DNA of 64,000 bases, taken from positions 32,001 through 96,000 of IMG/VR virus record IMGVR_UViG_3300027751_000004; one strand, 5' to 3'. Shown piece by piece: positions 102 to 34,963 of this stretch (the first letter of the stretch is position 1; each line of letters starts with the position of its first letter). This stretch comes from a virus. Its lineage: Duplodnaviria > Caudoviricetes. The notes beneath the pieces are model-generated. The model searched no databases. It was not told the DNA's origin and saw only the letters and a program-made list of their open reading frames with translations. Both the position numbers and the translations under genes were made by a program.

Positions 102-1499
102 TTATACTTGGAAACCGCTGTAATCACGTTTCTCGTTATTTCCCCATGTCGCCACAGGTTTATCATTGGCTGGCGTAGTTGGTGCTGCAGAGTCAATTAG
201 ATTCTGAGCAGATTCTTCTACATCATATAGCTTCATCTTAGACCTATCAACCCCAACAACAAACCGCTTGTTTGCTCCAGGATCATTATATCTATTCTTC
301 AATTGCTTCACTAATATCTGACCTAACTGCTCGAGTTCCTCGCTACTGATCAGGGCAAACATAAAGTCCGCAGTAGCAGGTAGACCAAACGATTCAGAAG
401 TATCTTCAAGACCAACATCAGAGTTACCATAACCAGATCTTGTAGTCTGAGTTGCCGACATGATAGGAACGTCAAACTCTACAGCAAGACCACGTATCTC
501 TTCAGCAATAGACTTGATCAAAGAGTAGGTATTCACCGAGCCACCCAGACCTTTCATACGAGACGATGAACAGATATTAAGATAATCAATATAGATTACA
601 TCTGGTATAAAGTTCTTCTTCAACTTCAACTCGTTCAGTAACGCACGGAAGTGACCAACATGCGCAGATCCAGTAGGATATTCTTTGATGATTAGTTTGC
701 CTTGAGTTTTCTTAGCAATCTTCTCGACCTTACTATCAAACATTTCTTTAGATAAAGTCTCAAGCTGATCAATAGGAAGATTCATCAGGTTCGCATCAAT
801 ACGTTCAGCAATACGCTCTTCAGCCATTTCCATAGTAATGTAAAGAACATTTTGACCCTGAGATAGGTTTGCTCCAGCACAGTGACACATGAACAAAGAC
901 TTACCAACACCAGTACCAGCCATTGCGATATTCAGAGTCTTACGAGGCAATCCACCTTTAGTGATACGATTGAAGTAATCAAGATCAAATGGTATACGAA
1001 CTTCTTCACGATGATAGAACTCATAACGACCCTCAGCACTATCAACATAATCATGACCAACACTGCGGTCAAACGAGATGCCCAATGCTTCGGATAGGAT
1101 ATCGGGCAATGCGTTCTTGCTTAGTGTTTGGTGTTTACCGTCAATGATATTGATAGATTCTAGGATAGCAAGGTGAATGGCTCGATCCTGACACCATTTC
1201 TCTGTAGACTGCATAAGCCAAGTTTCATCAACAGCTTCAACAGTCTCAAACATCTGCTCGACCTGTGAACTGATCTCGCCAACATCTACGCCACGTAGGT
1301 CGGCTGAGTCCAGTTCAATTAGGAATGCTTCTCTGGTAGGCAGGTTGTTAAACTTAGCTACAAAGTTGCCGAGTTCTTGAAACACAAACGAAGTAGATTC
1401 AGAGAAATACTCAGCCTTCAGAAATGGTATAACTTGACGAGCGAAGTGCTCGTTCTGAATTAGGTTCCTGAGTATTGTTGTTTCCAGATTCGCTTGCAT
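102..1499 (-). CDS. 41: Replicative DNA helicase (T4 gp41-like, DnaB family)
   Basis: Walker A AGTGVGKS, YITMEMAEERIAERID, IDYLNI, SATQTTRSG, KQLKNRY; probable start at MQANLE. Confidence 0.97.
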   Translation of the reverse strand: MQANLETTILRNLIQNEHFARQVIPFLKAEYFSESTSFVFQELGNFVAKFNNLPTREAFLIELDSADLRGVDVGEISSQVEQMFETVEAVDETWLMQSTEKWCQDRAIHLAILESINIIDGKHQTLSKNALPDILSEALGISFDRSVGHDYVDSAEGRYEFYHREEVRIPFDLDYFNRITKGGLPRKTLNIAMAGTGVGKSLFMCHCAGANLSQGQNVLYITMEMAEERIAERIDANLMNLPIDQLETLSKEMFDSKVEKIAKKTQGKLIIKEYPTGSAHVGHFRALLNELKLKKNFIPDVIYIDYLNICSSSRMKGLGGSVNTYSLIKSIAEEIRGLAVEFDVPIMSATQTTRSGYGNSDVGLEDTSESFGLPATADFMFALISSEELEQLGQILVKQLKNRYNDPGANKRFVVGVDRSKMKLYDVEESAQNLIDSAAPTTPANDKPVATWGNNEKRDYSGFQV

Positions 1500-1788
1500 C
1501 TTCACCACCTATCCTATAGTCTTCTTTACCATCAAATGCAGACATAATTATATCTCTTAATATGTCCCCAGTTAGCATTTTAAAATCATCATCACCTTCA
1601 AGTGCAGCGGATTCCTCTTTAGGTTCAAGTACACCCATTTCGAAATTTAGCTTTGCATGATCATGCTCAGGGACTTCCTGAGCACTCACTGCACCATAAC
1701 CTACAACTACATCCTTGTATTTGCCATCAGTAATACGCACGCCCCAGCTGTCATAGCCTTCAACGTCGATTAACTCATAACTCACCAT
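1411..1788 (-). CDS. Conserved hypothetical protein in the uvsX-41 interval (position of T4 gp40)
   Basis: Likely start MVSYEL overlapping the uvsX stop; synteny only. Confidence 0.6.
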   Translation of the reverse strand: MVSYELIDVEGYDSWGVRITDGKYKDVVVGYGAVSAQEVPEHDHAKLNFEMGVLEPKEESAALEGDDDFKMLTGDILRDIIMSAFDGKEDYRIGGEDASESGNNNTQEPNSERALRSSSYTISEG

Positions 1789-2833
1789 TGGCGATCTCCT
1801 CCATGTCAATGGTAGTAACACCACCGACACCAAACTGGTATTGCTTCTTGATAAACTCTTTGAAGTCAGAGTTAGCAAAGATTGGCTCCCAGAAAGATTC
1901 TTCTTGGGTGGCTTTCATACGAACCTTTTGACCCATCTCGCCAGTGCTTTGATCAACAGTAGCATACCAACCATTACTCGGTTTAATCACATATCCGCCA
2001 ACAAGGGCAACATCAAGTAATCCAGAGTAATTAACGATACCGCCATCAAAAGTTACCTTGATTGGGATCTTAGATTTCTCTCGAACAAACCTTGACTTTT
2101 CTACGTTGATTACAAAGTCATACCCTTCAATCTCACCTGAGCTCAGTTTGTTTTGACGTCTACCAACAATCCAGATATTATCTGCAGAGTAGTAGATACC
2201 AGTACCGCCAGATACAATATCTTTAGGGAACAATCCGATTTCCTTATAGGTATGATTGATAGCAATCAAAGGAATATTCTTCATGGTTAGGTATGGGGTG
2301 GTCATACGGAATAAACCTTTCAACGCTTTGGCTCGAGACATGTCAGCAACTGACTTCTCATTCAATGCGTCTTCAAGTTCTTTCTTAGATGCTAAGTTAC
2401 CAATTGAATCGATTACTACAATAACCTTTTCATCACGAGCAAGATTATCAAGCTGACCAACAAGGTCGAACTTTAACTCTTCAACGTCTTTGATAGGGGT
2501 GTGTAGAACACGATTAATATCGATACCGAACGATTCGAAGTATGATTGCGGTGAACCAAATTCTGAATCATAGAAAAGCATTACGGCATCGTCATACTTG
2601 CGAAGATAAGCTGCAGCCATCTTTAAAGCAAAAGAAGTTTTGAAGTGTTTACTCGGTCCAGCCAAGACTGTAAGACCTGAAGTAAGACCACCATCTACAT
2701 CACCCGACAATGCGACGTTCATCATAGGAACGTCTGTCGGGATAATATCTTTTGTATTAAAGAAGGCTGAATCAGCTAGTGTATCGCTTTCTTTAATCTT
2801 CGAATTTTTTCGAAGTTTATCCATCAAACTCAT
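1775..2833 (-). CDS. uvsX: RecA-like recombinase UvsX
   Basis: LAGPSKHFKT P-loop, YDSEFG, DSIGNLASKKE, GGTGIYYSAD, KSRFVREKS. Confidence 0.97.
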   Translation of the reverse strand: MSLMDKLRKNSKIKESDTLADSAFFNTKDIIPTDVPMMNVALSGDVDGGLTSGLTVLAGPSKHFKTSFALKMAAAYLRKYDDAVMLFYDSEFGSPQSYFESFGIDINRVLHTPIKDVEELKFDLVGQLDNLARDEKVIVVIDSIGNLASKKELEDALNEKSVADMSRAKALKGLFRMTTPYLTMKNIPLIAINHTYKEIGLFPKDIVSGGTGIYYSADNIWIVGRRQNKLSSGEIEGYDFVINVEKSRFVREKSKIPIKVTFDGGIVNYSGLLDVALVGGYVIKPSNGWYATVDQSTGEMGQKVRMKATQEESFWEPIFANSDFKEFIKKQYQFGVGGVTTIDMEEIANGEL

Positions 2834-2859
2834 AGTTTATCTCCAATTAATGAGACCAT

Positions 2860-2888
2860 ATTATAACATATTATTGAACAAAAGTAAA
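2860..2888 (-). promoter_or_regulatory. Sigma70-type early promoter for uvsX
   Basis: TTTACT-N17-TATAAT on the minus strand. Confidence 0.8.
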
Positions 2889-2896
2889 GCGATATT

Positions 2897-3412
2897 TTAC
2901 TTTGGACGCTTCGGTAGACTATTCGAGACTTTGCTCTTAATTTTTCTGATCAACTCGTGCTTAGTTAAACCTTTGTGTAGTTTACAGCCAAGATCTTGTC
3001 CATAGACGTACAATTGCTTTGAGTTATAACCCGAAATGGATTGGATTTGTTCTCGAGCTTTACGCAACGCTTCATCATACACTGTCTGAGGATCATCAGA
3101 TTCTTCCTCTACTGGTACTTCTTCAGCAGGAGCCTCTTCTTTAGACTCAATGAATGCTTCTGGGGACAAATTCTCAATAATAGGATCATCGCCCAAGTCA
3201 GGGGTTTCTTCTGCTTCTGCTGGAGTAAACTCTACTACAACATCGTCATCAGTAGAAGTATCTACCTCTACCTCTACCTCTACTTCAGTTAATTCTGTTT
3301 CTTCTACAGATTCCGCATCGTTAATTGCTGCTTGAATCTGCGCCTTAGTCATTTTGTCTGTTACGTCCAGACCCATCTCTTTAGCTTTCGCTAATAGTTT
3401 TTTCTTAGTCAT
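2897..3412 (-). CDS. Acidic protein with two Rho-N/HeH-like helical modules
   Basis: N-terminal TKKKLLAKAKEMGLDVTDKMTKAQIQAAI and C-terminal SKQLYVYGQDLGCKLHKGLTKHELIRKI flank an E/D-rich linker; probable start MTKKK. Confidence 0.55.
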   Translation of the reverse strand: MTKKKLLAKAKEMGLDVTDKMTKAQIQAAINDAESVEETELTEVEVEVEVDTSTDDDVVVEFTPAEAEETPDLGDDPIIENLSPEAFIESKEEAPAEEVPVEEESDDPQTVYDEALRKAREQIQSISGYNSKQLYVYGQDLGCKLHKGLTKHELIRKIKSKVSNSLPKRPK

Positions 3413-3413
3413 T

Positions 3414-3614
3414 TTAGACCCTCGCCTTTTGTATTCTTCGAACCATTTCTTTTTTAACAAGACCTTTGTGTAGTTTAACTGACTCACTAGCACCCAATTC
3501 AATTAACTGAGTTCTTGTAAGTTCCATCAACTCTTCATCAGTTTGTTTCGTTTTTAGATCATTTAATTCGCTGTTACAAAATAAGTCTTTAATAGATTTC
3601 AAAAAGTTTAACAT
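3414..3614 (-). CDS. Small protein with one Rho-N/HeH-like module
   Basis: LMELTRTQLIELGASESVKLHKGLVKKEMVRRI resembles the C-terminal module of the neighbouring gene. Confidence 0.55.
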   Translation of the reverse strand: MLNFLKSIKDLFCNSELNDLKTKQTDEELMELTRTQLIELGASESVKLHKGLVKKEMVRRIQKARV

Positions 3615-4568: not shown

Positions 4569-4598
4569 ATTATACTATAGATGATAGTATAAAGTCAA
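4569..4598 (-). promoter_or_regulatory. Sigma70-type promoter for the primase-like gene
   Basis: TTGACT-N18-TATAAT inside the 3' end of the kinase gene. Confidence 0.6.
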
Positions 4599-5115
4599 CT
4601 ACTTTTTTCGTGTCGTCAACGTTTTCGTGCCTCATTTCTTTGACACATCCTTCTTCTTCACCAAATAGAGTAACCTTGTCGCCATACTTCTCAGCAATAC
4701 GACTTACTTTAGTCTTTACAGTTTGGATGAATTTGTCACTTTGGTTTGAACCACGTTGCACGTATCTCCGTTGCCTTTCCTCGTCAGATACAGTCAAGTG
4801 AACAATAACTTTGTCGTCAAAGCAATCAAAGAAACCTCCATTATTGAGTCTGTCACCCTCGCCAATTACTACCTCGTCACGATCTTCGCTATAGTATTCA
4901 ATTGCTTTGGGTGCTACCGCCATTGATAGTCTATCGGTGCCAGAGAACGTCTCTCCTTCCTCGTACTTGCCTAGAACACGTAGGTGTCCAGAGGTATGAC
5001 TATCGAGTAGATCGATTGGTCGGTTAGTAACCCAATCATTATAGCGACTCATAAACTCTTTCATTACAGTAGACTTACCGCATCCTGGAAGTCCAATCAA
5101 ATATATTAGTTTCAT
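4570..5115 (-). CDS. P-loop nucleotide kinase of the base-hypermodification-associated type (candidate 5-hmU DNA kinase)
   Basis: GLPGCGKST Walker A, LGKY..GETFSGTDRLSMAV, IGEGDRL, RGSNQS; adjacent to an amino acid:DNA transferase. Confidence 0.8.
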   Translation of the reverse strand: MKLIYLIGLPGCGKSTVMKEFMSRYNDWVTNRPIDLLDSHTSGHLRVLGKYEEGETFSGTDRLSMAVAPKAIEYYSEDRDEVVIGEGDRLNNGGFFDCFDDKVIVHLTVSDEERQRRYVQRGSNQSDKFIQTVKTKVSRIAEKYGDKVTLFGEEEGCVKEMRHENVDDTKKVVDFILSSIV

Positions 5116-5124
5116 ATTATACCT

Positions 5125-6144
5125 TTACATAAATGCGTCAAGACCCATTACCACTTGACTGTCTTCGTTAAACATCCAATTCAATCTATCAATGTTGCCA
5201 GTTGATACAAACTCAGAATACTTAGACTTATTGATAACCCTAGTTTCATATACACGCTCGTCTAGAGTTTCCTCACGAGCCTGCCACAATACTTCCCATT
5301 CAATACCAGCCCAGTCATCTGCTTCGACTTTACGGATCTCTTCAGCAACTCTATCATTATAGTAACCCAAGTATCTACCATGATGCTCACGGAATATCTT
5401 CTTGAATGCGCAGAGAGCAGTTTCCATAGTGAATGTATTTAGATCTTTATCAAGGTGAGAGAATCTACTCTTCATCTCAACTAGTATAGACTTTGCCTCA
5501 TCCTCTAGCCACTGATATTCATCTGGCGTAAGTTTAGCATCATACCAATCATCTTTACCGAGAGCCATACACAAACCATTGCGGTGAGATCTAGAACCAC
5601 CATAATCCTTTAAGAGTAAAGTCCTAGGAACGTTAGGTATATGGGCAGTATGGTTTAGATGCTGTAGGAAGAACCAAGTAGAGTATCTACCAAACTTATA
5701 GAACTTGTCTGTAACTGCGTTGTATAGGTTATCAAAGTTGACATACTCGTTATCACCCATAAGAGACTCGAACGATTCACGCTGAGATCTAGATCCAACA
5801 AACTCCGCATAGGACTTGAACATATCTGGCAAATGACCTTTTGACCACTTAGTGTCTGTTTGATATCTGAGACGTTTATAGTTCTCAGTGTTCCAAAGAC
5901 TCATGCGGTCATAGGTAGCAAGTTCGAAGTCGGGGAACTCGTTGATAAGGATCCAAGCGGTCGGCAGATAATATGTGTTGCCATATAACCAAGACAACCA
6001 TATTCTCTGCTCTGAGTTATGCTCGAATCTATCATTGAGGTAGTTAGTCATCCATACGGCAGGGTCGCAGTCTTTATATTCTACCGACCAAGCATACCAC
6101 TTTATGAATGCTTCTCTACGATTTTGTTTTAATCTATAATCCAT
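5125..6144 (-). CDS. Amino acid:DNA transferase (AADT / aG/PT-PPlase clade 2, HhH-glycosylase fold)
   Basis: DCDP, WLSWLYGNTY, KFGRYSTWFFLQHL (HhH-like), SHRNGL, METALCAFKK, RYLGYYNDR; probable start MDYRLK. Confidence 0.85.
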   Translation of the reverse strand: MDYRLKQNRREAFIKWYAWSVEYKDCDPAVWMTNYLNDRFEHNSEQRIWLSWLYGNTYYLPTAWILINEFPDFELATYDRMSLWNTENYKRLRYQTDTKWSKGHLPDMFKSYAEFVGSRSQRESFESLMGDNEYVNFDNLYNAVTDKFYKFGRYSTWFFLQHLNHTAHIPNVPRTLLLKDYGGSRSHRNGLCMALGKDDWYDAKLTPDEYQWLEDEAKSILVEMKSRFSHLDKDLNTFTMETALCAFKKIFREHHGRYLGYYNDRVAEEIRKVEADDWAGIEWEVLWQAREETLDERVYETRVINKSKYSEFVSTGNIDRLNWMFNEDSQVVMGLDAFM

Positions 6145-6145
6145 A

Positions 6146-7438
6146 TTACTCTTCAAATGCAGGAAGTACATCAACCTGAATATCTAGCTGGTGGAAGTTG
6201 ATGGTATCTTTTAGGTCTTTTAACCAAGAGCCATCTTCATGCTCAGCGATCTCCATCTTAGAAGTATAGTGAAGAACAATAGCACCTTTATCGGCACTGA
6301 CGTTTTTCATTCTACGACATATATAACCAAACGCTTGACCATGTTTTGCTTTAGACATCTGAGCATGAACAGTAGCGATATTATCCTTACCATAGTTTTC
6401 CCATTCATACCGCTCAAAGAACGCATCATCATAAGCAATGATGTTAGATTGATACTTCAGAGATGCCTCTGTTTTCTGTATGCGGTTTTGAACAGACTTA
6501 AACAAACCACTTAGCTTTTTCTTAGAGGGGATTACAAGGATGAATCTATCATAGATTAGTTTCCTTGCTCGCTCCTCTTGTAGCGGTTGCGATATATCAA
6601 GTTTCTGCTCGAGGATGAAGTTTTGCATCTGGCGTTTGATATCTTCATCGCTATTATACTCACGAATCTTATCACCCTCTTTGTTCATTAACATACCAAA
6701 GAAGTTGTAGTTCGTTTTCCTAGTTTTCTCATTAGAGCCAAACTCCGACTCGTTAATAAAGATAACAGGAGCAGTAGATATTCCTCGGACTTTCATAAGG
6801 GCAGCAGTTCGGTTGTTACCATCTAGGATAGTACGCTCGCCATCAGATTTAACCACAACTGTAATCGGGTCGAGTAACTCAGATATCTTCTCTGGGTTCT
6901 CTTCCATAGCGTTTACTAGTTTACTCACATGATGTGGCTTAATAGTTTCTACACGGACTTGGTTCTTACTGTACGATGATAACTGGTTCAAAGGCACTTG
7001 TTGAACATCGTATTTGCTACCTGCTATATTATCGGCAATTGTTTTGATTCTTTGATTCTCATCAGCAAAGGAGTTTTCGATTTCAATACCGTCAGTCTTA
7101 CCCTCGATATAATCAATAATAACTTCCTTCATCTCTGGAGTGATAAGTGCCTCGTCAACACAATGCGCATTATTCTTATAATTGTACATGAGGTCTCTGG
7201 ATACTTTGGTGCCATACTTGAGGGCAAACCACTCAAGGGTTTTTGCGATATCTAGATCTTGCTCTTTGCCCACATAGATTATACTGCGTTTGAGTAGACC
7301 ACAACTGTAGTCTTGCCAAAACTCTGGATTCTCGGATGATGAAATGTAGAATGATTTACCAGCTGGTTGTAACCCGATATACATCTTACTGGATTCAATA
7401 TTGCGATATGCATAAACATATACGTTATTAGTCAACAC
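6146..7438 (-). CDS. GIY-YIG nuclease-like domain fused to a ParB/Srx-like domain
   Basis: N-terminal YVYAYRNIESSKMYIG...YISSS...LE...YN; central NQVR...DPITVV...ILDGNNRTAA; GTG start with GGAG RBS. Confidence 0.65.
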   Translation of the reverse strand: MLTNNVYVYAYRNIESSKMYIGLQPAGKSFYISSSENPEFWQDYSCGLLKRSIIYVGKEQDLDIAKTLEWFALKYGTKVSRDLMYNYKNNAHCVDEALITPEMKEVIIDYIEGKTDGIEIENSFADENQRIKTIADNIAGSKYDVQQVPLNQLSSYSKNQVRVETIKPHHVSKLVNAMEENPEKISELLDPITVVVKSDGERTILDGNNRTAALMKVRGISTAPVIFINESEFGSNEKTRKTNYNFFGMLMNKEGDKIREYNSDEDIKRQMQNFILEQKLDISQPLQEERARKLIYDRFILVIPSKKKLSGLFKSVQNRIQKTEASLKYQSNIIAYDDAFFERYEWENYGKDNIATVHAQMSKAKHGQAFGYICRRMKNVSADKGAIVLHYTSKMEIAEHEDGSWLKDLKDTINFHQLDIQVDVLPAFEE

Positions 7439-7472
7439 GTGCTTTTCTCCTCTATTCGGTCAAGCAAGTAGT

Positions 7473-7501
7473 ATTATATAATAAAATGACACAAAAGTAA
7501 A
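7473..7501 (-). promoter_or_regulatory. Sigma70-type early promoter for the GIY-YIG/ParB gene
   Basis: TTTACT-N17-TATAAT with an upstream A-tract. Confidence 0.8.
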
Positions 7502-7509
7502 GGTTTTTT

Positions 7510-8043
7510 TTAAAAGAATTCTGTGAGTCCTTCTGGCTCTACAAACACTTCAACACAACCACCTTTACCTTTCTTGTTTACTGCAGCAAAGATTGTTGGG
7601 TCTGATATATCATAGTAACCATCTTGAAATGTATTATTGATACGGAACATTGATAATTGACATCCGCTTTTCTGTTTACCTAGAAACTGAAACCCACATT
7701 TCTCGTAAAAGGCAACAGCATCTGGCTCGGACGAAACACGGTAGTATAGTGCTTTATCTGCCTTTGCCCTTTGTAAAGATTCGATACAAAGTGTTCTACC
7801 GACCCCTTTACCTCTATGATTAGCAAAAGTATGAAGCAGTTGAAGGTTCGCTACTTTTGGCGAACGTTTTGACACAGTTGTGATGATTGCTCCGAGTAAG
7901 TCGTTACCGTCCCAGAGACCAATGCAATAATCCCACTGCCCCTGCATGTTCGCCTTTGTTACAAATGTTTTGGCGAACTTGTCTGCAGGATCAGTAGTAA
8001 TGGCAGAAGTAAATTCTTCTGCTGTAGTTTTACGCAACTTCAT
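7510..8043 (-). CDS. GNAT-family N-acetyltransferase
   Basis: Acetyl-CoA motif A LHTFANHRGKGVGRTL and motif B AVAFYEKCGF; probable start MKLRK. Confidence 0.88.
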   Translation of the reverse strand: MKLRKTTAEEFTSAITTDPADKFAKTFVTKANMQGQWDYCIGLWDGNDLLGAIITTVSKRSPKVANLQLLHTFANHRGKGVGRTLCIESLQRAKADKALYYRVSSEPDAVAFYEKCGFQFLGKQKSGCQLSMFRINNTFQDGYYDISDPTIFAAVNKKGKGGCVEVFVEPEGLTEFF

Positions 8044-8902
8044 GGTATTCACGCTTTTTAGTTCCACGTTCTTTAGCCCATTTAGTTTTCTGATGACCGA
8101 CCCACTGGTTCAAATTCCAATCAAATGGAGGGAACTCATAGTCTCCTTCCGATAGTATTTCTTTTACGCTTGGACCACCGTTTAGGGCAGCATCTATAAA
8201 TGCTTCAACGAAGCGGAACATAGACTCCATATGCTTGCGTTCAGTTGTAGCACGGAAGCAACGGAACTCTATCGTACCAGTGTGTTTCATACAATAGGTA
8301 TTGATAGCATATCTGAAAGGTCTACCCATAGAAACTCCATCCTTACCTGCTGCGTGTAACTTGATAAAGTGATCAAAGTCGGTAGCAAGATTCATGATAT
8401 TGTTTGCCATGTATTCAGGCATTTGACGACCACCATCATACTTCATGTACATCTTAGCACCTTTTGCTTTCTTCATTGAACCAGATTCGTGAAAGAGTCC
8501 GCAGTTCTCGACAACATCAGCTTGGTTATCTTTGATGTACTTTATCAAACGCTTCAGAGCGTCTAGATCTTCAGTCAGCTTTGGTACATAAACATGTAGG
8601 TGAGAATGGCTGAGGCAGTTAGAAGTAGGTTCGCAACCCTGATCAATAAACCACTGTTTAACCTCTTGGATACGGTCTACCTGTCCTTCCCAAGTTTTAG
8701 TCGGTTTGGTATTAACCTCACCGCCAAACGGAGGGTCTTCACCTAGAGGGTCGCAGGCAACGTATCTATAAGGATCTCGTAGATTAACTACGTCAGTCTC
8801 GGAGTATTCCCAACTACCAAGATGTTCGGGTATTTCTAACCTGCGGTCAATATCGCCCCATTCAATTTCATATCCCCAAGTAAAGTCTTTTTTATCATAC
8901 AT
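8030..8902 (-). CDS. Amidoligase (COOH-NH2 ligase, glutamine-synthetase-like fold)
   Basis: FTWGYEIEW, GGEVNTKP, HSHLHV, RYAIN...GTIEFRCF. Confidence 0.85.
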   Translation of the reverse strand: MYDKKDFTWGYEIEWGDIDRRLEIPEHLGSWEYSETDVVNLRDPYRYVACDPLGEDPPFGGEVNTKPTKTWEGQVDRIQEVKQWFIDQGCEPTSNCLSHSHLHVYVPKLTEDLDALKRLIKYIKDNQADVVENCGLFHESGSMKKAKGAKMYMKYDGGRQMPEYMANNIMNLATDFDHFIKLHAAGKDGVSMGRPFRYAINTYCMKHTGTIEFRCFRATTERKHMESMFRFVEAFIDAALNGGPSVKEILSEGDYEFPPFDWNLNQWVGHQKTKWAKERGTKKREYHEVA

Positions 8903-8914
8903 AACAATTTACCT

Positions 8915-9529
8915 TTAAGGTTGTAAGTCTTCACCAGCATAATCTACTCGGCTGGTTTCTAAAGTTTTAAATCCACTACGTTTAATAATATCTTGAGTTG
9001 ATGAGTATATCTTACCTCGATCAACTTCGGCTGTCCAAAGTGGACGTTTACCATTACGCATATATTGTATACCATTTCTGTCCAAAAGTAAAGCAGAAAT
9101 TGATGCGGTTTCCCAAGCAGTAGGATCTGGTCGATGAAACAGTAACTCAGAGTCGTTTGCCGTTTCACAATCTAACTCGTATAGATCTTTCCAGTTCTCT
9201 GGTAACTCTTGAGAGATAACCCCATTATGAACAAGAGATAAACCCTCATCCGCAATAGGTTGATTGAATCTAAGGTCAGAAGTGCTATAACGACAATGAG
9301 CAACTGCCTTCATATCTCCATTCTCGTCAACCCAGTCTGCTGGATTATTGTTCTTCATAAACTCAACAGCATCTACTGGCTCTTTAATGGTATGAACCTT
9401 ACCCTCTTTCAGGTAAGATACGCCAGTGGCATGCTTGCCTCTAATCCTAGATTCAATGAATAGGTGACGGATAGAAGATATATCCTTAGCAGTTACGCCA
9501 CTTATCTCAATACCAATTACTGCGCACAC
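8915..9529 (-). CDS. Class II (Ntn) glutamine amidotransferase
   Basis: Cys at position 2 (MCAVIG), RGKHATG, HCRYST, NQPI, VHNGVI, NDSE; GTG start overlaps the upstream TAG. Confidence 0.9.
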   Translation of the reverse strand: MCAVIGIEISGVTAKDISSIRHLFIESRIRGKHATGVSYLKEGKVHTIKEPVDAVEFMKNNNPADWVDENGDMKAVAHCRYSTSDLRFNQPIADEGLSLVHNGVISQELPENWKDLYELDCETANDSELLFHRPDPTAWETASISALLLDRNGIQYMRNGKRPLWTAEVDRGKIYSSTQDIIKRSGFKTLETSRVDYAGEDLQP

Positions 9530-10941
9530 TAGAAGAACTCCTCCAAACTTGCTTTTTCTTCATATGCTTCAGGGTGGTACTTTTCTACCATTTCTCGACC
9601 ACCAGTAGATTCAAGATACTCGTACCATTCATCAGAGTCCCACATTGAAGGTGATACGCCATTCCATCGATCACGCCACATAGGATGCTCTTTGTTAAGT
9701 CTACGATGATCAACAAACTGTCTGCGGATTACCTCATAGTCATACGAGCCAAGCTGTAGCATATCCTCGCGGAAGTAGAATACTAGCGACATACGAAGCA
9801 TATCATCTTCACCTGAGTCAGGTGCTTCGATCGGAGTGTTACCGTGAATGATTCTCATATTATCTACAAGCAGTAGATCTCCTGGACGAGCATTAATAGC
9901 CATACGAACTTCAGGGCAACAGAGATAACCGCCTTTCCAATCTGTACCATCTTTGGTAACTACTGTTAGATTGCTGAAACCCTCATTCAAAGAACCAGCA
10001 TCACGATGACAAGCCATACGTGCGTTACGATCTTTGGTGGTTGTATTTACAGTAATCGTAGTAAAGGTAGTATCCTCGCCAATAAGGAATCGTTTGTCCA
10101 TTTGCTCAGCGCACTTCTGTTGGCGACCATATCGTACAGGTAGCAAACGTTTGAACTCAGCTTCTAGTTTACGAGCAAACGGATAGCATTTCTCAAAGGT
10201 TGTGCGATTATGCTCAGTGAACGAAGTCGGTCTACCAAACGGAATACGAGGATACCTACCATAGAAGCCAGCAATACCAGACCACAATGCTGCTGCGTAA
10301 GAAGTTTGAGAGATGTAGCTATCATATATTTTCTTAGCCGTAACTGATGCTTCACGCAAGTCAGCATCTCTTAGTTCTTCCATTACAGTGTTAAAGAATG
10401 TGCGGTAATCGCCATAATCATTCTCAACTTTAGATCGTAACCAAACAGAACCACGTGCTTCGTTATTACCGCTACCAAGATACTTTTCTTTGATAGCTTC
10501 AAGAGGATCGGAGCCATCAAGAGATAGCGGTTGACCATCCATGTAATACTTGAGGACTTCTACCTGATAGGGAGTTACCCAATCACGCCCACCACTTTTC
10601 TCTACTCGCTCACCTGCTGCCAAACCACGATTATGAGATTCAACCGCAGCATCGAACAAACCATCAAACGCACCTGATTGCTCGTCTGATGTGAATGTGT
10701 TTTTACGGAACTTGAATGCTATTCTATCTTCATTAAGTTCGCCAACCTCACCATCTACATTAGATTCCGCTGGTAAGTATACGTCGGCATCACTATCAAT
10801 TACGATATCGTAGCTTTCTTCCGTAGCAAATTTACCGAGCAAGTCGTCTTGGTTCTCGACAAAAAGAGCAACATATACGTCTTGCCCCTCATCGCCTTTG
10901 AACTTCTGCCACTTGCGACCATTTATATCAATTATTTCCAT
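9529..10941 (-). CDS. TET/JBP-like 2-oxoglutarate/Fe(II) dioxygenase
   Basis: FTTITVN, HxD (CHRDAG), GGYL..PE, RPGDLLLVD, distal His (IHGNTPI), 2OG-binding RxS (RMSLVFYFRE). Confidence 0.85.
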   Translation of the reverse strand: MEIIDINGRKWQKFKGDEGQDVYVALFVENQDDLLGKFATEESYDIVIDSDADVYLPAESNVDGEVGELNEDRIAFKFRKNTFTSDEQSGAFDGLFDAAVESHNRGLAAGERVEKSGGRDWVTPYQVEVLKYYMDGQPLSLDGSDPLEAIKEKYLGSGNNEARGSVWLRSKVENDYGDYRTFFNTVMEELRDADLREASVTAKKIYDSYISQTSYAAALWSGIAGFYGRYPRIPFGRPTSFTEHNRTTFEKCYPFARKLEAEFKRLLPVRYGRQQKCAEQMDKRFLIGEDTTFTTITVNTTTKDRNARMACHRDAGSLNEGFSNLTVVTKDGTDWKGGYLCCPEVRMAINARPGDLLLVDNMRIIHGNTPIEAPDSGEDDMLRMSLVFYFREDMLQLGSYDYEVIRRQFVDHRRLNKEHPMWRDRWNGVSPSMWDSDEWYEYLESTGGREMVEKYHPEAYEEKASLEEFF

Positions 10942-10964
10942 AATATTCTCCTAATACAACGCAT

Positions 10965-10993
10965 ATTATACTATACTTCATACTAAATGTCAA
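10965..10993 (-). promoter_or_regulatory. Perfect-consensus sigma70 promoter heading the modification operon
   Basis: TTGACA-N17-TATAAT, followed by an AGGAG RBS. Confidence 0.85.
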
Positions 10994-11372
10994 GCACTTT
11001 TTTCAAATCAGGTTCAGAATAATCTGGACCCTTTAGAATCTTACCATCTTCACGATAGATGGGTTTACCATCCTCGCCCAACTTACTCATATTAGATCTT
11101 TGTACCTCACGGAAACAAGCGTCAAGGTCAATACCAAATGCGTGTCCTGCGCCATAGGTAACATATAGAATATCAGTTAGTGCGTCAGCAACCTCAACCA
11201 TATCCTTTTCTGCCATTGCTACAAATAGTTCTTGTAGTTCTTCTTTGATAAGTTCGTATCGTAGAGCAACAGTATCTAAATCTGGGAACTCAGGCGATCG
11301 CTTTACTTCCTGCCCAAAGGCATCCATAAAGACATTTACTTTGTTAAAGTTTGTTTGGTAATAGTGTGTCAT
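10983..11372 (-). CDS. MazG/PRA-PH-like all-alpha NTP pyrophosphohydrolase
   Basis: LIKEELQEL, EVADALTDILYV, EVQRSNMSK, REDGKILKGP. Confidence 0.9.
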   Translation of the reverse strand: MTHYYQTNFNKVNVFMDAFGQEVKRSPEFPDLDTVALRYELIKEELQELFVAMAEKDMVEVADALTDILYVTYGAGHAFGIDLDACFREVQRSNMSKLGEDGKPIYREDGKILKGPDYSEPDLKKVLDI

Positions 11373-13894
11373 TGAAAAAAGTCCTCTAGTGATATTTTCT
11401 CTTCTTCGTTCCAGCCGATTGCGGCAAGTATTGGTCTAACAACTTCCAAGAATGCTTTGTCGAACTGGAGGTCATAGTCAACGTATTTATGCAGCTTTAA
11501 ATCTTCGGGTAAGAAGTCTGGGAATGCGATTACATTTTCTTTAATAGGGTTTGGTACTTTAAGATAGGCAAACTTTATCTTTTCGCCATCTTTGATTGTT
11601 TGATACTTACGACCCAAGCCATTAGTCTCAATTTGATTATTGTAGAGTAATGACCCACGAACATGAATAGGTGTACCCTTCCTATAGATGAGTTGGCGGT
11701 CTACCCAATTAGTTACATTAGAAACTCCACGAGGGAATGCTACATCCTCTGGCGGTAGAGTGATAAAGTAATCCTTGAACTGCTTGATTGCCATTTGGGT
11801 TGTAGCTTCATCCTGAGTTATGATAACCTTGAACAACTCTTTGAGTGCTTTACGACAAGATGCGGGAGTAGAGGATTTAACTGCTTCGATACCCATAATC
11901 TTGAGTTTAGGTTCTGCGTATTGAACACCCTCGTTATTATGTACGTTTAGTATGTAACGTTTCTTAGCAGTCCAGATACCAGCATCAGCAATAGCTTCAC
12001 GAGCCATGACCATCTTGTTCTCATAAGCATCCATATACTCAGCTAGGTCGCCATAAGAATTTTCTAGCATAGGCTCGAACTGTTCAGAACAGACCTTATC
12101 AAGCATCTTTACAGTTTCAGCTTTGGGTAAGTCTTTGAAGTATTTATCGACGAGAGGTTCAAAGTTAATATACAACGAATCAGTATCGATGGCGATAACA
12201 TAATCTTTATCTTCTCCGATAATCTTGGACATGAATCGATTAACTGCCTGCTCTGCCCACCTGATCGATAACTGACCTGATAGCGTAATACCCTCAGCAA
12301 TACGCAGGTCAAAGTAACGGAACCAGCGATTACCAATAGCACCATAGAGAGAATTCATCATAATCTTGATAGCCATCTGTTCATTATCGAGAGTGGATAT
12401 CTTTTTCTCTAGTTGATATACTTCGGTCTTTTTAGTTTTATCAACGCCCTCTAGTTCCTGCGTGGCATCTAGCATCTGACGCTTTACTTGTTTCCTGCCA
12501 GCATATAGACTACCAACAACCTCAGGAATAACTCCACAAATATCCTTACGATAATGCGAACCATTTGCTGCCATGGTACAGTCGGGGCGTGCACTTTGAG
12601 GTTTACGACCCGACAAACAAGCATCAACGTTCACCCCCATAGTCGCATCATTTACGATAGTCTCGGGAGACATATTGTACTGCATAATCAGGTGAGGGTA
12701 TAGAGAGTTTAAGTCAAAGGAAACGACCCAAGCATGGCGACCAACCATAGGACTTTTAACAAAACCTCCAGGAAAGTCAGTCTTCATCTTTTCTTGTTTG
12801 GGCGGTACTGCTGTTTTCTTTTCGTATAGTTCTCGATAGAGGAACGTATCCCAAATACCAGTAGTACCAAACGCATCGCTGTAGTTTACCCCAGCTTTGT
12901 ACGCCAGAGTCATACACAAGGTGATGAGACCCATCTTATCTTCTAGTCGGTCAACTAGTTCTACGTCTTTGATATTATAGTCAACGAACTTCTGGTGATC
13001 GTGTTTGTACAGAGTAAAGAGATTACCATACTCCTCATAGGATAACTTGTTCTCCCCCAAAACAACATGGGCAATATGGTCAAGTTTGTATGACTCTTCG
13101 GCAGTATAGGTAAACTTCCTATAGAGATCCAAATAATCTATCTGCTCAACACCTTTGATCTCAAACTTCTGCTCGGTCTTACCTTTGATAGTAACCTTGC
13201 GCTCGTCGATTTTACCCCAAGGTGATAGTTTCTTAGCCATATCCTGACCAATCACTTTAGTTATTCGGTTGATCATATAGGTCATATCAAACAGAGTTGA
13301 GTTCCAACCAGTAATTACATCTGGCATGAACCGAGCATTAGACCAATGGGTAACAAACTCCATAAGTAATCTGGCTTCGGACTCGCACTTCTTGTAGATA
13401 ACTTGATTGTCCTGCATAATGGACTTAGAGGTATCGTAGTCGCCCAGACCCCAAACATAATATATGTTATCGATATTATTCTTAAGAGTAATTGTGATTA
13501 CTGGGTGATCTGCATATTGAGGTTCAGGGAATCCCTCGTCGGAAGCGACCTCAATATCGATGGTAGTGACATTGATAATGTCACGATTGAACTCAATAGT
13601 TCCTGGATACTTTTCCTGAACATACTGAGCAATGTAATTTGTATTGCCGTGAATCTTGAAGTTAGAGGTATCCCCATATTGCTGGATAAACTCCCTTGCT
13701 TCACGCATTGTATCGAAGTCTATTGGCTTGAGTGGTGCACCTGTTAAGGATTTCCAATCACCGCCTTCAGCTGGGACATATAGGGTTGGTGAGAAACGGA
13801 CACGTTCGGAATATTTATTCCCATCACGATATCCACGGACAAGTATGTCGTTAGAGAATCTGCTAACTGAGGTGTAGAAAGTATTATTCATCAT
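11369..13894 (-). CDS. 43: Family B DNA polymerase (T4 gp43-like)
   Basis: ExoI DIEV, SFDLNSLYP, KIMMNSLYG, AIDTDS, KKRY; uninterrupted; C-terminal SLEDFF clamp-binding tail. Confidence 0.98.
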   Translation of the reverse strand: MMNNTFYTSVSRFSNDILVRGYRDGNKYSERVRFSPTLYVPAEGGDWKSLTGAPLKPIDFDTMREAREFIQQYGDTSNFKIHGNTNYIAQYVQEKYPGTIEFNRDIINVTTIDIEVASDEGFPEPQYADHPVITITLKNNIDNIYYVWGLGDYDTSKSIMQDNQVIYKKCESEARLLMEFVTHWSNARFMPDVITGWNSTLFDMTYMINRITKVIGQDMAKKLSPWGKIDERKVTIKGKTEQKFEIKGVEQIDYLDLYRKFTYTAEESYKLDHIAHVVLGENKLSYEEYGNLFTLYKHDHQKFVDYNIKDVELVDRLEDKMGLITLCMTLAYKAGVNYSDAFGTTGIWDTFLYRELYEKKTAVPPKQEKMKTDFPGGFVKSPMVGRHAWVVSFDLNSLYPHLIMQYNMSPETIVNDATMGVNVDACLSGRKPQSARPDCTMAANGSHYRKDICGVIPEVVGSLYAGRKQVKRQMLDATQELEGVDKTKKTEVYQLEKKISTLDNEQMAIKIMMNSLYGAIGNRWFRYFDLRIAEGITLSGQLSIRWAEQAVNRFMSKIIGEDKDYVIAIDTDSLYINFEPLVDKYFKDLPKAETVKMLDKVCSEQFEPMLENSYGDLAEYMDAYENKMVMAREAIADAGIWTAKKRYILNVHNNEGVQYAEPKLKIMGIEAVKSSTPASCRKALKELFKVIITQDEATTQMAIKQFKDYFITLPPEDVAFPRGVSNVTNWVDRQLIYRKGTPIHVRGSLLYNNQIETNGLGRKYQTIKDGEKIKFAYLKVPNPIKENVIAFPDFLPEDLKLHKYVDYDLQFDKAFLEVVRPILAAIGWNEEEKISLEDFFQ

Positions 13895-13901
13895 ATAGTA
13901 T

Positions 13902-13930
13902 ATTATACCGCATTTAATGGTAAAAGTCAA
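13902..13930 (-). promoter_or_regulatory. Sigma70-type promoter for gene 43 (probably leaderless mRNA)
   Basis: TTGACT-N17-TATAAT; ATG lies 7 nt after the -10 box. Confidence 0.8.
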
Positions 13931-17710: not shown

Positions 17711-20700
17711 CTATGTATTTCCATATTCCGCAACAACAACTTCTATATATGCTGTTTCCGGATCTACCGATGAATCAGTCCCAGAATATACTATATAGTA
17801 AGTTCCTGGGGTAGTAAATTGAGTGTCCCAGCGTAACATCCCAGTTTTCGAGACTGGGTATTCATCTTCATCATAGCTATAATGTCCTGATTCGATAAAG
17901 TTTGACTTATATATTCGGTGACCATAATCTGTGTGGCTTGACATGACTGTCCCTTTGACATAATTATCACCAGCATCAGGATACGCCATACCTATCCCTA
18001 ATGGGTTAGCATCCACATCATCCATATCTATATCGCCACCTGTTTTACTACTTTTCACAATTAGAAAATCTGTAGATGAGATTTCTGAGTTATCATAATT
18101 ATCTATCAGCCAATTTTTCTGGGCGGTATCGGGTAACTCATTAGGTAATTCAGGCATATACGATAAATTTAGCACGGCTCCAACTTCCACATAAATTTGA
18201 GTTCTTGCAGCCTGTCCAGCTGCTGTATTACCGCCTTTTGCATCGGAATAAGAAAAGTTGGGTACTCCATTATTAGCATCCCGATATTTTCGGGATCTTG
18301 CAACAAGGGTATCGTCTTCCAACCTCTGTATATAGAAGCTGTAAACATTTGGGTATGTAATTAATCCTTGGAATTTTGTTCTAAAGAATATTTCGTCTAT
18401 TATATGATTCTGAGACAAGCTGAGCAAACCTGCTCCAGAATCGTCAACAGGTTGAACTCCATGTATTCTTAGTGAATGCACCCTTTCAAATTTAGAGGCT
18501 GCTCCAATTTCCAGATTATCTAACTCTGTTCTTTTACCATCATATCCCCAATGGTTTGAACCAACATCACTATTCCAATTACCCGTGTCACTAGGATAAT
18601 TATATGCGAACCTAGTGACGATTTTTCCAGCTACTTGAGCACCAATTTGGTTACCAATTCTTATAGGTGTTACATAGGGTGACCTAGAACCATACTTATC
18701 TTTATTTCCGAATCCTTCCCGATCGACATCTGTCAAGAATTTCACCGAAGATAAGTGAACCTCACCATCAGCATCTTCATGCCTATTCGGGTTAGTTCCA
18801 TCTGAAACTGACTGGCTACTGTTATTATAATCGAATGGACCAGAATCCCCTTTATTGTCACCCCTAAAGTCTTGATTCAAAGACTTAAACCCATGAATTG
18901 TTGTTAAGTCATCTAGTATAGTAACGTCAGGGATATAGGTTGTTTCACTGGTAGGTTCTTCGGTTAATGATTCTCTACCCACGATTTCACTATTAACCAA
19001 TTCAACATTTATTCCTGTGACTTCGTAAAAACCATACAAATTGTAATTAGCTTCGCTAGGACCAGCACTTGTGTCAGTGAATAATAATGTTTCGCTATAA
19101 CCTTCAGCTGGTATATCAATTACTGTAAAACCAGCCTGCCCGATATCTTGAGACGCTATTCTAACAAACGCATCTAGGCTTGAATCTAGATCACCGTTAG
19201 GATCCCTAAATCTGACATGAATATCAGTATTTGTTGGATAGAAGAAATTTCTGCCGTTAGGCGAAATAGAAGTTCCCGTCCAATCAACAGCACCAAACTG
19301 AATTTGTTTTCTTTTTCCATCAGTAGATCTGAATCTCAACCCACGAGTACCATCCACTTTATAATGCACTTCAGGGGCAATCCCTTGCTGAACAAAACTA
19401 GCGGTGGCGGAGGGGTTTAATGTACCAAGAAAAAGATTCCTGGCAAGACTATTCCCTCTTAAGTGAGAAGGGATTTCGTTTTGTCCTTGTACTGTAAAAG
19501 TCGTAGCACCATCGGCTAATCGATCATGAGTTGCCTGATATGTAGGGTCTGCGTCAGGATAATCTTCAAATCTTAAGGATACATCTGTATGTATTGGCTC
19601 TCCGTGAAATTCGGCAATTTCGCTGAATGTAACATCTGGTTCTTTCCCAAGGCTCATCCTATTGTCTATAAGTTCTTTGCCGTCAAGTAAGCTATTGTCT
19701 CGGGCGTACTTATCAAATAACATTTCATTTCTTGGGTATTCTGAATGATCTTGTAGAGTAATCGAGAACATTCGCCAATCCTGATCTGCGATATCCCCAT
19801 TACCTCCAGGATCTCTTGCAGGTTTAAATCTGGATACTAATCTTTCAATACGTTTTCCGTTGTTATCTAGAACAGACTCAGTTCCTTTTAGTAAGAAATC
19901 GTTATCTTCCCTAAGTTCGTTAAAAACTGTCCTACAATAAGTACCATCTGGGTACTCAAAATTCATTAGGCTACCGCCATTACTAACATATAATTCGTAA
20001 ATCGGGCAATCGTCGTCTAAAGGATCTTTATCAACGCAAACTACCCTAAATGTGTAGCCTAAGTCTACAAAATCTCCATATGGTTGATCTGTGTCCATCA
20101 AGTTGTCGACCCCGATGCCCTCAACGTCTTTGGCTTCTGCAAGCTGACCTTGATGCGCACCAGATGCTTCATATGGCAATAAGCTAGAAGAAAACACTGT
20201 ACCTGGATAGTTATTGTCCTGAGCCCAATGGTCTCGGTGTCTCCAAAAACCTTCATGATCTATATGTCTACTATCAAAACCGTAACCGCTGAAGTATGGT
20301 AGTTTCCTAGAGGGAAACCCATATGGGCTAAAGAACTCAGTTTCAAACATTACAGGGATATCTTTGTAAGCCTTAAATTTACTTTGTGCTCCAGGAGTCT
20401 TAATTGGTTGATAAACTGAATTTGCAGAAGAACCCCCTGTCGGGGCGTTATTCGCATAGCTTACAGAACTTTTAGTTTCTACTTGTGAGCCAAAATGTAT
20501 GACATGGGGGGCTAGGTCATCCCTTTCTCTATTATTAACTGCAAAAAAGGTTTGTGGATGAAGAGGCGGTCTATACCGTTGAATATCCCATTTGAAAGAT
20601 AAAGCCAACATTGTATTGGCGTATCTAGATACTGGTCTATATCTAGATGGATAATGTTTGTGGAAGATTGAATGGGCGTCGCAACCTATAGAGATATCAG

Positions 20701-27032: not shown

Positions 27033-27710
27033 TTATGCATTAAACTTTGAATTTTTCTCAAGGGCAACCCAGTATGTTACTTCACCAGTCGCAAATTGAG
27101 AGATTAATTTAGACGAGATAGACACTTTCATATCACCACCAACAAACTTAAAGTTAGAGATATTGAAGATCATCTCGAATGAAGAGTCAGGTCGAGTAGC
27201 AGACGGGATAGACATTTCATAACTGTTAGAGGTAGAGTCTTTAGTATCGGTCACCTTAACAGTAACGCCAGAACCACCTTCTTCACCTACAACCACAACG
27301 TCACTAGAACCTAGTGCAGCTGCCGCACGTCGAATAGAAGACAATTGATCTTCAGTAATGTCCAGTTCAATCTCGCAAGCAGGCATAGTAATGTCTTTTT
27401 GCGGAGTAGTTAGGATAGAAGCATCAGAGAAGAAGTAGTTTACAGACTGACCACCCTCGCTAATCTTAACAGTCTTACCATCATCGCCAAACTCGAGGTC
27501 TGGGTCTTCAAACATACCTACAACCGAAAGGAATTCATTCAGGTCATAGATACCAAAATCCTGAGGGAAAGATTCAGCAACATTGGCTGTCGCTAGAATA
27601 TTCTTTGCTTCAGAAATAGTTTTGATTACGTTACCAGCCTTTACAACGATATTGGGATTAATCGTTGAGAAGTTCTTTAGCATCGCAACCGTTTCATTCG
27701 AGATTTTCAT
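27033..27710 (-). CDS. 45: Sliding clamp (gp45-like)
   Basis: MKISNETVAMLKNFSTINP, FGIYDLNEFL, YWVALE. Confidence 0.96.
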   Translation of the reverse strand: MKISNETVAMLKNFSTINPNIVVKAGNVIKTISEAKNILATANVAESFPQDFGIYDLNEFLSVVGMFEDPDLEFGDDGKTVKISEGGQSVNYFFSDASILTTPQKDITMPACEIELDITEDQLSSIRRAAAALGSSDVVVVGEEGGSGVTVKVTDTKDSTSNSYEMSIPSATRPDSSFEMIFNISNFKFVGGDMKVSISSKLISQFATGEVTYWVALEKNSKFNA

Positions 27711-34381: not shown

Positions 34382-34963
34382 TTATCCCATAAACAGTTCA
34401 AGGTTTTTGTCTTGCTTCTTCTTGGTTATCTTCTCTTGTTTGCTGAACTCTTTTAGGACACGGTCAGAATCTCTAACCTTATCGATACGACTGCGGAGTT
34501 CTTCGATAAATCCATTATCACCTATGTCTTCTCCAGATGCATCATGCTGAACAATAAACTCCTCAAAGGACGCTTGCTCAATAAACCTCATTTTAACATC
34601 AAACTGTTTCTTCTCTTTCTGGATACGTCTTATGAAAGCATAATAGCATATCTGAGTAAAGTACGCAAACGCATTAGGATTACCAGTACGAGTGGCTGTT
34701 TCTATATTGTAATTCATGATAGCTTTCAGGCAGTTTTCTACAGCATCCATAACCATTTCTTCCCGATAGGTATATCGAATGAAGTTAGGTTTATGCGATA
34801 GACCTTCAGATATTTTTAAGAAACATGTGGCGATATATTCGGTTACGATGGGGTTTGTTTCGCCCCTTTCCTGCGCCTGCTTGACAGAATTGACGTAATC
34901 GACTACAGACTGCGAGAACAATTTATTGTTCACATAATGAGGCTTGTTGGCAGGTTTAGTCAT
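34382..34963 (-). CDS. 55: Late-transcription sigma factor (gp55-like)
   Basis: HYVNNK, NFIRYTYREEMVMD, NAFAYFTQI; C-terminal LELFMG. Confidence 0.96.
   Translation of the reverse strand: MTKPANKPHYVNNKLFSQSVVDYVNSVKQAQERGETNPIVTEYIATCFLKISEGLSHKPNFIRYTYREEMVMDAVENCLKAIMNYNIETATRTGNPNAFAYFTQICYYAFIRRIQKEKKQFDVKMRFIEQASFEEFIVQHDASGEDIGDNGFIEELRSRIDKVRDSDRVLKEFSKQEKITKKKQDKNLELFMG

Follow-up and report, generated by a model that had tools for sequence, protein, structure and literature searches.

Modification genes and their C-termini

The sequence analysed here is a window of 64,000 nucleotides that covers bases 32001-96000 of a T4-like marine phage contig, 120,033 bp long (IMG/VR record IMGVR_UViG_3300027751_000004), and our subject is a short C-terminal peptide that three DNA modification enzymes of this phage, a TET/JBP-family dioxygenase, an amino acid:DNA transferase (AADT) and a GNAT acetyltransferase, share with its DNA polymerase (gp43) and late sigma factor (gp55). 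A sequence-only reading of the window had proposed that this peptide is a docking tail for the sliding clamp gp45. All coordinates are window positions unless stated otherwise. The genes of the window are almost all on the minus strand (GC about 0.40), and the modification genes are placed between a primase-like gene and the DNA polymerase gene. The features in question are the following.

4570-5115, minus strand: P-loop kinase (PF18751), in the modification cluster, without the tail
5125-6174, minus strand: AADT (PF18724, 6.8e-19), ending ..VVMGLDAFM, GLDAFM encoded at 5128-5145; start probably the ATG at 6144, which gives 339 aa
6146-7438, minus strand: ParB-like protein, 430 aa (phrog_1033), ending ..DVLPAFEE (6149-6169)
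7510-8067, minus strand: GNAT acetyltransferase (PF13673/PF00583), ending ..EPEGLTEFF; start probably the ATG at 8043, which gives 177 aa
8030-8902, minus strand: amidoligase-like protein (PF12224, weak match), without a clamp-type tail
8915-9529, minus strand: class-II glutamine amidotransferase (GATase; PF13522), without a clamp-type tail
9529-10941, minus strand: TET/JBP-family (5mYOX) dioxygenase, 470 aa (PF12851, 3.3e-16), ending ..EKASLEEFF, SLEEFF encoded at 9532-9549
10983-11372, minus strand: MazG (PF01503), without the motif
11369-13930, minus strand: gp43-type family-B DNA polymerase (phrog_262, E = 0), ending ..KISLEDFFQ, SLEDFFQ encoded at 11372-11392
27033-27710, minus strand: gp45 sliding clamp, 225 aa (phrog_223, 3e-71, and PF09116), the proposed docking target
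34382-34963, minus strand: gp55 late sigma factor (phrog_234, 1.4e-51), ending ..DKNLELFMG, NLELFMG encoded at 34385-34405

The dioxygenase, the P-loop kinase, the AADT and the GATase lie together in one cluster as a thymidine-hypermodification gene set, and the same set, with a ParB-like protein included, was described for ParB-dependent thymine dioxygenases (O'Toole et al., PNAS 2026, PMC13229309). In the scheme of that work T is oxidised to 5-hydroxymethyluracil (5-hmU) on the polymer, then the kinase, the AADT and tailoring enzymes act, and ParB proteins are activators of a subclass of phage T-dioxygenases. The phage studied here shares with those pathways the gene set and the post-replicative oxidation of T as entry step, but its dioxygenase is longer, about 230 of its 470 aa forming an N-terminal region, and that paper makes no mention of gp45 or of a clamp-binding tail. 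A nucleotide search of a phage database found no close relative of the modification cluster.

The five C-termini were read exactly as the sequence-only reading had given them, and its family assignments (PF18724 AADT, GNAT, PF12851 Tet_JBP, family-B polymerase, late sigma factor and gp45) held in Pfam and PHROG matches. The amidoligase-like protein, the GATase and the kinase were without the tail, as had been said, and MazG was without it too. The tail of the dioxygenase was nearly identical to that of the polymerase, while the AADT and GNAT had G in place of S/T, and the hydrophobic and acidic make-up, (S/T)L(D/E)xΦΦ, was like that of the resident polymerase and gp55. In the GNAT the core ended ..GGCVEVF and was followed by a 10-residue extension, VEPEGLTEFF (7513-7542). 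The tails were written in different codons from gene to gene, so the likeness has been selected at the protein level, and recent copying of the tail between genes as DNA was rejected.

A count of such termini across the proteome, which had been suggested as a check, was made with a strict pattern, L..F[FMLYW].{0,2}$ at the end of an open reading frame (ORF), over the 144 ORFs of the whole 120,033 bp contig. Six ORFs had the strict tail, namely the five named proteins and one baseplate hub protein outside the window, while 0.32 were expected from the internal frequency of the motif (binomial P ~1e-6), and 2000 rounds of residue shuffling averaged 0.36 and did not exceed 3. The baseplate hub protein (PF12322; 118777-119481 of the contig), which the sequence-only reading had overlooked, ends ..LEGLQSFF, and its homologues (41-47% identity) keep LRG[LF][QD][SN]FF[GT] directly after a CxxC pair.

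Conservation and family restriction of the tail

Homologue sets of the 120 best matches per enzyme (61-97% identity) were used to determine how well the tail is kept. The ending [ST]L[ED]xF[FL](x) was found in 117 of 120 dioxygenases, and the profile anchored on Leu showed a conserved YHPEA, a low-information linker of 5 residues, and then L (119/120), E/D, F (119/120) and F (113/120). The AADTs were at much the same level: in 118/120 a variable linker led into GL[ED]x[FWL](x), and the profile read WMFxDE, linker and G-L-E-x-F. For GNAT, at least 59 of 120 homologues had an Lxx[FWLY] extension beyond the core ..GGCVEVF with a linker of about 5-15 residues and 31 ended at the core; the remaining 30 comprised 17 without the core anchor, many of which end in an L..F-type tail, and 13 with a motif-less extension. 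The tail was kept in almost all dioxygenases and AADTs and in about half or more of the GNATs. The alignments indicate that the GNAT tail is an add-on whose linker length varies and which has been gained and lost. In nearly all homologues only 0-2 residues followed the F-F/M, which places the peptide at the extreme C-terminus, and both the information profiles and the GNAT extensions showed that a divergent linker of varying length joins it to the fold. The AlphaFold2 (AF2) model of the dioxygenase (28-row alignment) had a mean predicted local distance difference test score (pLDDT) of 57, too poor to judge disorder of the tail.

To see which families carry the tail, about 90 viral loci around dioxygenase homologues were collected with an alignment query, since a single-protein query returned only 11 loci, and the 1755 ORFs called in them were assigned to the genes of this genome by BLASTP. 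The strict tail was present on 92 of 93 dioxygenase ORFs, on 16 of 17 polymerases (in the form [ST]L[ED]xFF(x)), on 24 of 44 AADTs (38/44 with L[EDG]x[FW] within the last 8 residues), on 6 of 12 GNATs and on 18 of 45 gp55 homologues. Together the five families had it in 156/211 ORFs and all other assigned ORFs in 1/594 (Fisher P ~1e-117, in which independence is overstated as the contigs are related), which answered the concern that the motif might be common among unrelated ORF ends. Many gp55 homologues ended DSDLSxF[LIF]EE, and a second group of them had Lys/Arg-rich ends (..KKKRTIEE, ..KMKKVVK) with no hydrophobic motif.

The tail was also found when the unassigned ORFs of these loci were clustered. 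Two groups of TET-associated glycosyltransferases (TAGT, PF20691) ended ..ATLDEFFG and ..SLENFFA, a GT1 glycosyltransferase of 449 aa ended ..ATLEDFFG, and further tailed ORFs were an HNH endonuclease, an endoVII-like protein, a methyltransferase-like protein and a family of 22 members without a Pfam or PHROG match. The tailed clustered families with a recognisable function all act on DNA.

These counts bear on the simplest rival explanation, that short hydrophobic C-termini look alike by chance. The motif has only 4-5 informative residues and one unrelated structural protein of this genome matches it, but an excess of six over 0.32 per genome, near-invariance over hundreds of homologues and a single match among 594 other ORFs mean that chance likeness is effectively refuted.

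Other conserved C-termini were seen in the same loci. The amidoligase-like family ended ..REYHEVA and the GATase family ..[ED]DLQ[PC], the latter conserved in most of 38 homologues. The ending VL[PD][AC]F[EDV] of the ParB-like protein was kept in 7/8 homologues and in all 4 of the loci collected later, which probably include some contigs already counted. This conserved ..DVLPAF[DE]E ending had been missed by the sequence-only reading, and it may be a weak or degenerate clamp tail, or a motif through which the protein partners the dioxygenase.

Tails that follow the resident polymerase

In each genome the polymerase tail alone was used as query and every ORF end was ranked against it. In this phage the dioxygenase came 1st of 143. 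The same type of ending was shared by polymerase and dioxygenase in C48C1 (..ATLEDFFG and ..ISLEEFFV) and in DLP_6 (..ATLDSFFA and ..ATLGDFFV); for reference, T4 gp43 ends ..EEKASLDFLFG and T4 gp55 ends ..SLDFLYEAND. The more distant phages were as follows.

Caulobacter phage Cr30: polymerase ..ADLSSLFD; TAGT-like protein ..SDLSKLF (1st of 281 in the ranking); dioxygenase ..GATLF
Kuttervirus CBA120: polymerase ..RRVNLLSMMGKKG; AADT ..KSVNLMTLLKR; 5-hydroxymethyldeoxyuridine (5-hmdU) DNA kinase 2 (PF18747) ..SSVSLLGLLSKG; HMUDK-type kinase (phrog_2396) ..RSINLLEKMKK; 70-aa protein ..KVNLLSLMSK
LIMEstone1 and Klebsiella phage UPM2146: polymerase ..VNLLAMM..; the same pattern on the AADT (both) and on a kinase (UPM2146)
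Vibrio phage 144E46.1: polymerase ..KKARKLW; AADT ..KTRKLW; HMUD2 kinase ..KTKKLW; HMUDK_hel (PF18723) ..STKRLW; small protein ..KTKKLW

In the enterobacterial Ackermannviridae CBA120, LIMEstone1 and UPM2146 the polymerases end ..VNLL[SA]MM, the AADTs ..VNLM[TS]L[LM].. or ..VSLLGLL.., and the kinases ..VSLLGLL, ..INLLEKM or ..NVLAMM. In Vibrio phage 144E46.1 the AADT, the HMUD2 kinase and HMUDK_hel were all within the top 5 of 210 ORF ends. As far as these comparisons go, orthologous enzymes differ in their tails from lineage to lineage, and the tail is in each case like that of the resident polymerase, which is what one common docking site predicts, and this is the strongest evidence of all. 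Co-variation was also seen within groups in the marine loci, e.g., polymerase PTLDNFFG with dioxygenase PTLEGFFQ, but was left out of the evidence since the contigs concerned are closely related.

There was one partial exception, Aeromonas phage phiA8-29 (NC_048660.1 26974-33913), in which the polymerase, gp55 and a 73-aa protein end VL[KR]F[FI]K while the kinase, the AADT and a 385-aa neighbour end TK[KR]LW, the class that Vibrio phages use on the polymerase too.

A small protein of 70-99 aa with a tail of the resident polymerase type was observed in three Ackermannviridae, at 9731-9943 of the CBA120 locus (L111), 18708-19007 of the 144E46.1 locus (L121) and 10069-10290 of the phiA8-29 locus (L143); in two of these phages it matched phrog_4789. 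We regard it as a candidate analogue of gp33, the late-transcription co-activator of T4. In the 120 kb contig studied here, which may be incomplete, no tailed gp33 homologue was found with ORFs of at least 30 aa included.

The switch of tail class is relevant to a second rival explanation, in which the tail is an intrinsic element of folding, stability or turnover (a terminal strand or a degron) and its likeness to the polymerase tail is incidental. Such a role could fit the baseplate hub protein, where the ..G[LF]xxFF end stands right after a zinc-ribbon-like CxxC pair and its position may be structural, and the kinase family, whose conserved C-terminus is part of the fold. For the tailed enzymes, however, the linkers vary in sequence and length, the tail is dispensable in many GNAT homologues, it occurs on at least 7 unrelated folds, and its class switches with the polymerase tail between lineages, which is unexpected of a fold element. 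We therefore consider this explanation very improbable.

The end of the kinase of this phage was looked at in its own right. Its AF2 model had a pLDDT of 91.6, with residues 166-180 forming an ordered C-terminal helix (pLDDT 96-97), so the ending ..VVDFILSSIV was rejected as a hidden T4-like 'LDFL' motif. A distant homologue (30% identity; 12911-13459 of locus L055) has a tail, ..EPNDLSSFF, added after the terminal helix, which shows that the kinase family can acquire one. We take the PF18751 family, described in Pfam as 'P-loop Nucleotide Kinase3', to be related to 5-hmdU DNA kinases. The tailed 5-hmdU DNA kinases of Ackermannviridae and this tailed distant homologue mean that absence of the tail is no sign of action off the DNA. 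The sequence-only reading had suggested that the tail-less enzymes may prepare a soluble donor, and for the kinase, a member of the nucleotide kinase family PF18751, this is doubtful in view of the tailed kinases of Ackermannviridae. A tail on an enzyme is an argument for recruitment to DNA, but its absence is no argument for a soluble substrate.

The presence of a clamp gene was also compared with that of the tail. A gp45 profile that found the clamp of DLP_6 found none in Pelagibacter phage HTVC112P, Nonlabens phage P12024L, Synechococcus phage S-CBWM1 or mycobacteriophage Bane1. The TET/JBP homologues of the first three and the AADT of Bane1 were without an [ST/G]L[ED]xF ending. The tail was thus present with the clamp and absent without it, in a small sample with four clamp-less phages.

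Proposed docking on gp45 and its meaning for hypermodification

The gp45 of this phage is related to the RB69 and T4 gp45 structures (1B77/1B8H, 1CZD and 7D7D; E ~1e-23). Complex modelling with gp45, which the sequence-only reading had suggested, was run with the gp45 trimer and the full-length GNAT, both as alignments, together with 3 controls and in three runs. The score was 0.64 for gp45-GNAT, a mark attained by 58 of 80 solved complexes and by 2 of 110 mismatched pairs, and 0.02 for the best of the 3 controls. The runs shared at least 95% of contacts, with a partner pLDDT of at least 87, and the contacts of lowest error were those of GNAT tail residues L173 and F176 with gp45 residues 32-39, 110, 201-203 and 214-216. 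The modelled pocket (gp45 residues 32-39, 104-110, 201-203 and 214-220 touching the tail) is the cleft between the two domains of gp45, beside the interdomain loop and the C-terminal strand. Presumably this is also the position of the RB69 polymerase peptide in 1B8H.

In T4, similar hydrophobic-acidic C-termini of gp43, gp55 and gp33 bind gp45 and are interchangeable (PMC2988020). The tails studied here are like those T4 and RB69 peptides (1B8H, 7D7D) in their place at the extreme C-terminus, the flexible linker, the (S/T)L(D/E)..ΦΦ make-up, a phage that encodes gp45, and a motif common to the resident polymerase and late sigma factor. They differ in that the carriers are base-modifying enzymes instead of replication or transcription proteins, that the register is L-E-x-F-F where theirs is L-D-F-L-F, and that binding is predicted. 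At the level of sequence the peptide has every feature of a T4-family clamp-binding epitope, and its binding to gp45 is a prediction. The comparative evidence and the controlled complex model together strongly support the proposal that these tails, like those of gp43 and gp55, serve to bind gp45, and likewise that the tail marks the GNAT as an enzyme recruited to DNA. On this evidence we think it probable that a clamp-docking peptide of the gp43/gp55 kind makes up the last 6-10 residues of each of the three enzymes, and DNA hypermodification in this phage is probably coupled physically to the replication clamp.

A third rival explanation is that the tail binds another shared partner, such as a ParB-like activator of the dioxygenase, a single-strand binding protein or a scaffold of a modification complex. 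A ParB-like gene does lie inside this cluster, and O'Toole et al. found that the extension is needed for activity (PMC13229309). However, the polymerase and gp55 have the same tail and their T4 counterparts bind gp45 through it (PMC2988020), and only 8 ParB-like homologues were found beside 93 tailed dioxygenases in the related loci, although many of these loci are truncated. In Ackermannviridae, whose pathway starts from incorporated 5-hmdU, the kinases and the AADT copy the polymerase tail and there was no TET/ParB pair in the regions read. The complex model also puts the tail in the gp45 pocket, and we regard another partner as improbable.

Several points weigh against docking on gp45 as the common role of the tail. 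Solved complexes of clamps with peptides exist (1B8H, 7D7D and 8UH7), so the pass of the model may be recall; it shows likeness to known clamp-peptide complexes and not binding by this copy. The tail is not universal, being missing from 31/120 GNATs and a few AADTs, and the conserved end of the baseplate hub protein means that proteins other than DNA enzymes can carry the motif. This phage's kinase is tail-less although it is expected to act on DNA, and in phiA8-29 the tails of the modification enzymes and the polymerase do not match, unless both forms fit one pocket. T4's own glucosyltransferases and Dam are without a gp43-like tail; its alpha-glucosyltransferase (alpha-GT) ends ..EQFDIITK. 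An interaction of this alpha-GT with gp45 was described in an older in vitro report, as cited in a recent preprint (ref. 20 in bioRxiv 10.64898/2025.12.06.692756), but that preprint, with C-terminally His-tagged enzymes, failed to reproduce it in vitro or in vivo (bioRxiv 10.64898/2025.12.06.692756). That case resembles the present one in that a phage DNA-modifying enzyme was proposed to ride gp45 and modify along with replication, and it differs in that a recognisable, conserved and co-varying motif is present here. A literature search for a clamp link to TET/JBP, AADT, 5-HMUDK or TAGT and phage glycosyltransferases, with most subscription journals outside its coverage, returned only this contested case.

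If the tail docks on gp45, modification could proceed as follows. The trimeric clamp would be loaded at forks and nicks of the phage DNA. The peptide, on its short variable linker, would insert its Leu and Phe-Phe/Met side chains into a gp45 subunit, at the hydrophobic pocket of the C-face that lies between the two domains and borders on the interdomain loop and C-terminal strand, and the clamp would carry the modification enzymes as toolbelt clients along the fresh duplex. In this way 5-hmU could be made from T, receive an amino acid and be acylated directly behind replication, ahead of host nucleases or packaging, and likely benefits would be fast and complete modification behind the fork. 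It is possible that clamp-loaded, and so phage, DNA is the sole substrate of modification; the sequence-only reading had proposed that only newly replicated phage DNA is modified, as self/non-self discrimination, which is reasonable as a conjecture on what the coupling is for.

A functional analogue is found in eukaryotes, where DNMT1 is tethered to PCNA via a PIP box. There too a DNA-modifying enzyme sits on the replication clamp via a short peptide and modification is tied to new DNA, but the DNMT1 motif is N-terminal and internal, whereas the tail here is C-terminal, the clamp is of another family, and DNMT1 copies an existing mark while a multi-enzyme pathway here would make the hypermodification de novo.

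Hypermodifications of phage DNA defeat restriction and CRISPR. The rationale for making them after replication has been called a mystery, and two questions were stated as open, namely how a whole genome is modified fast enough by post-replicative pathways and for what reason these arose alongside pre-replicative ones (PMC13229309). A clamp tail would offer a concrete answer, in which the enzymes follow the fork on the clamp in the way that DNMT1 moves with PCNA. The docking peptide itself was already known, and the base-modifying enzymes appear from the comparisons to be a new and widespread class of its clients, which would add base modification to replication and transcription among the processes known to be served by viral sliding clamps, in abundant marine T4-like phages and in Ackermannviridae (ViI, CBA120), where genetics is feasible. 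The tail could be used to recognise, from sequence, enzymes whose substrate is DNA and not nucleotides, while its absence is uninformative. For work in vitro, reconstitutions may lack a cofactor (the clamp with its loader), and C-terminal tags may disable the enzymes.

A broader proposal is that a lineage-specific clamp tail is a general rule of post-replicative phage hypermodification, with all polymer-acting steps (dioxygenase, 5-hmdU kinases, AADT, glycosyltransferases and acyltransferases) recruited by the clamp; we offer it tentatively, as a real possibility that we do not favour at present. If it were true, one could predict from the tail sequence whether an enzyme acts on DNA and with which clamp, and at its furthest extension phages without a clamp of their own would use host beta-clamp motifs. 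In the siphophage P12024L, adjacent genes for the TET/JBP protein, gp27 and a DNA methyltransferase (1315-3580 of locus L163, JQ823123.1 16409-18674) end ..GYLTL, ..NSNQLEIF and ..QSQQTLF, the latter two being similar to QL[SD]LF, the beta-clamp motif of bacteria. Among the 57 ORFs of this phage, a loose filter for hydrophobic L/F ends marked these three and three others, the latter without a Q-type ending. The P12024L endings may represent the same kind of tethering with the clamp of the host as partner.

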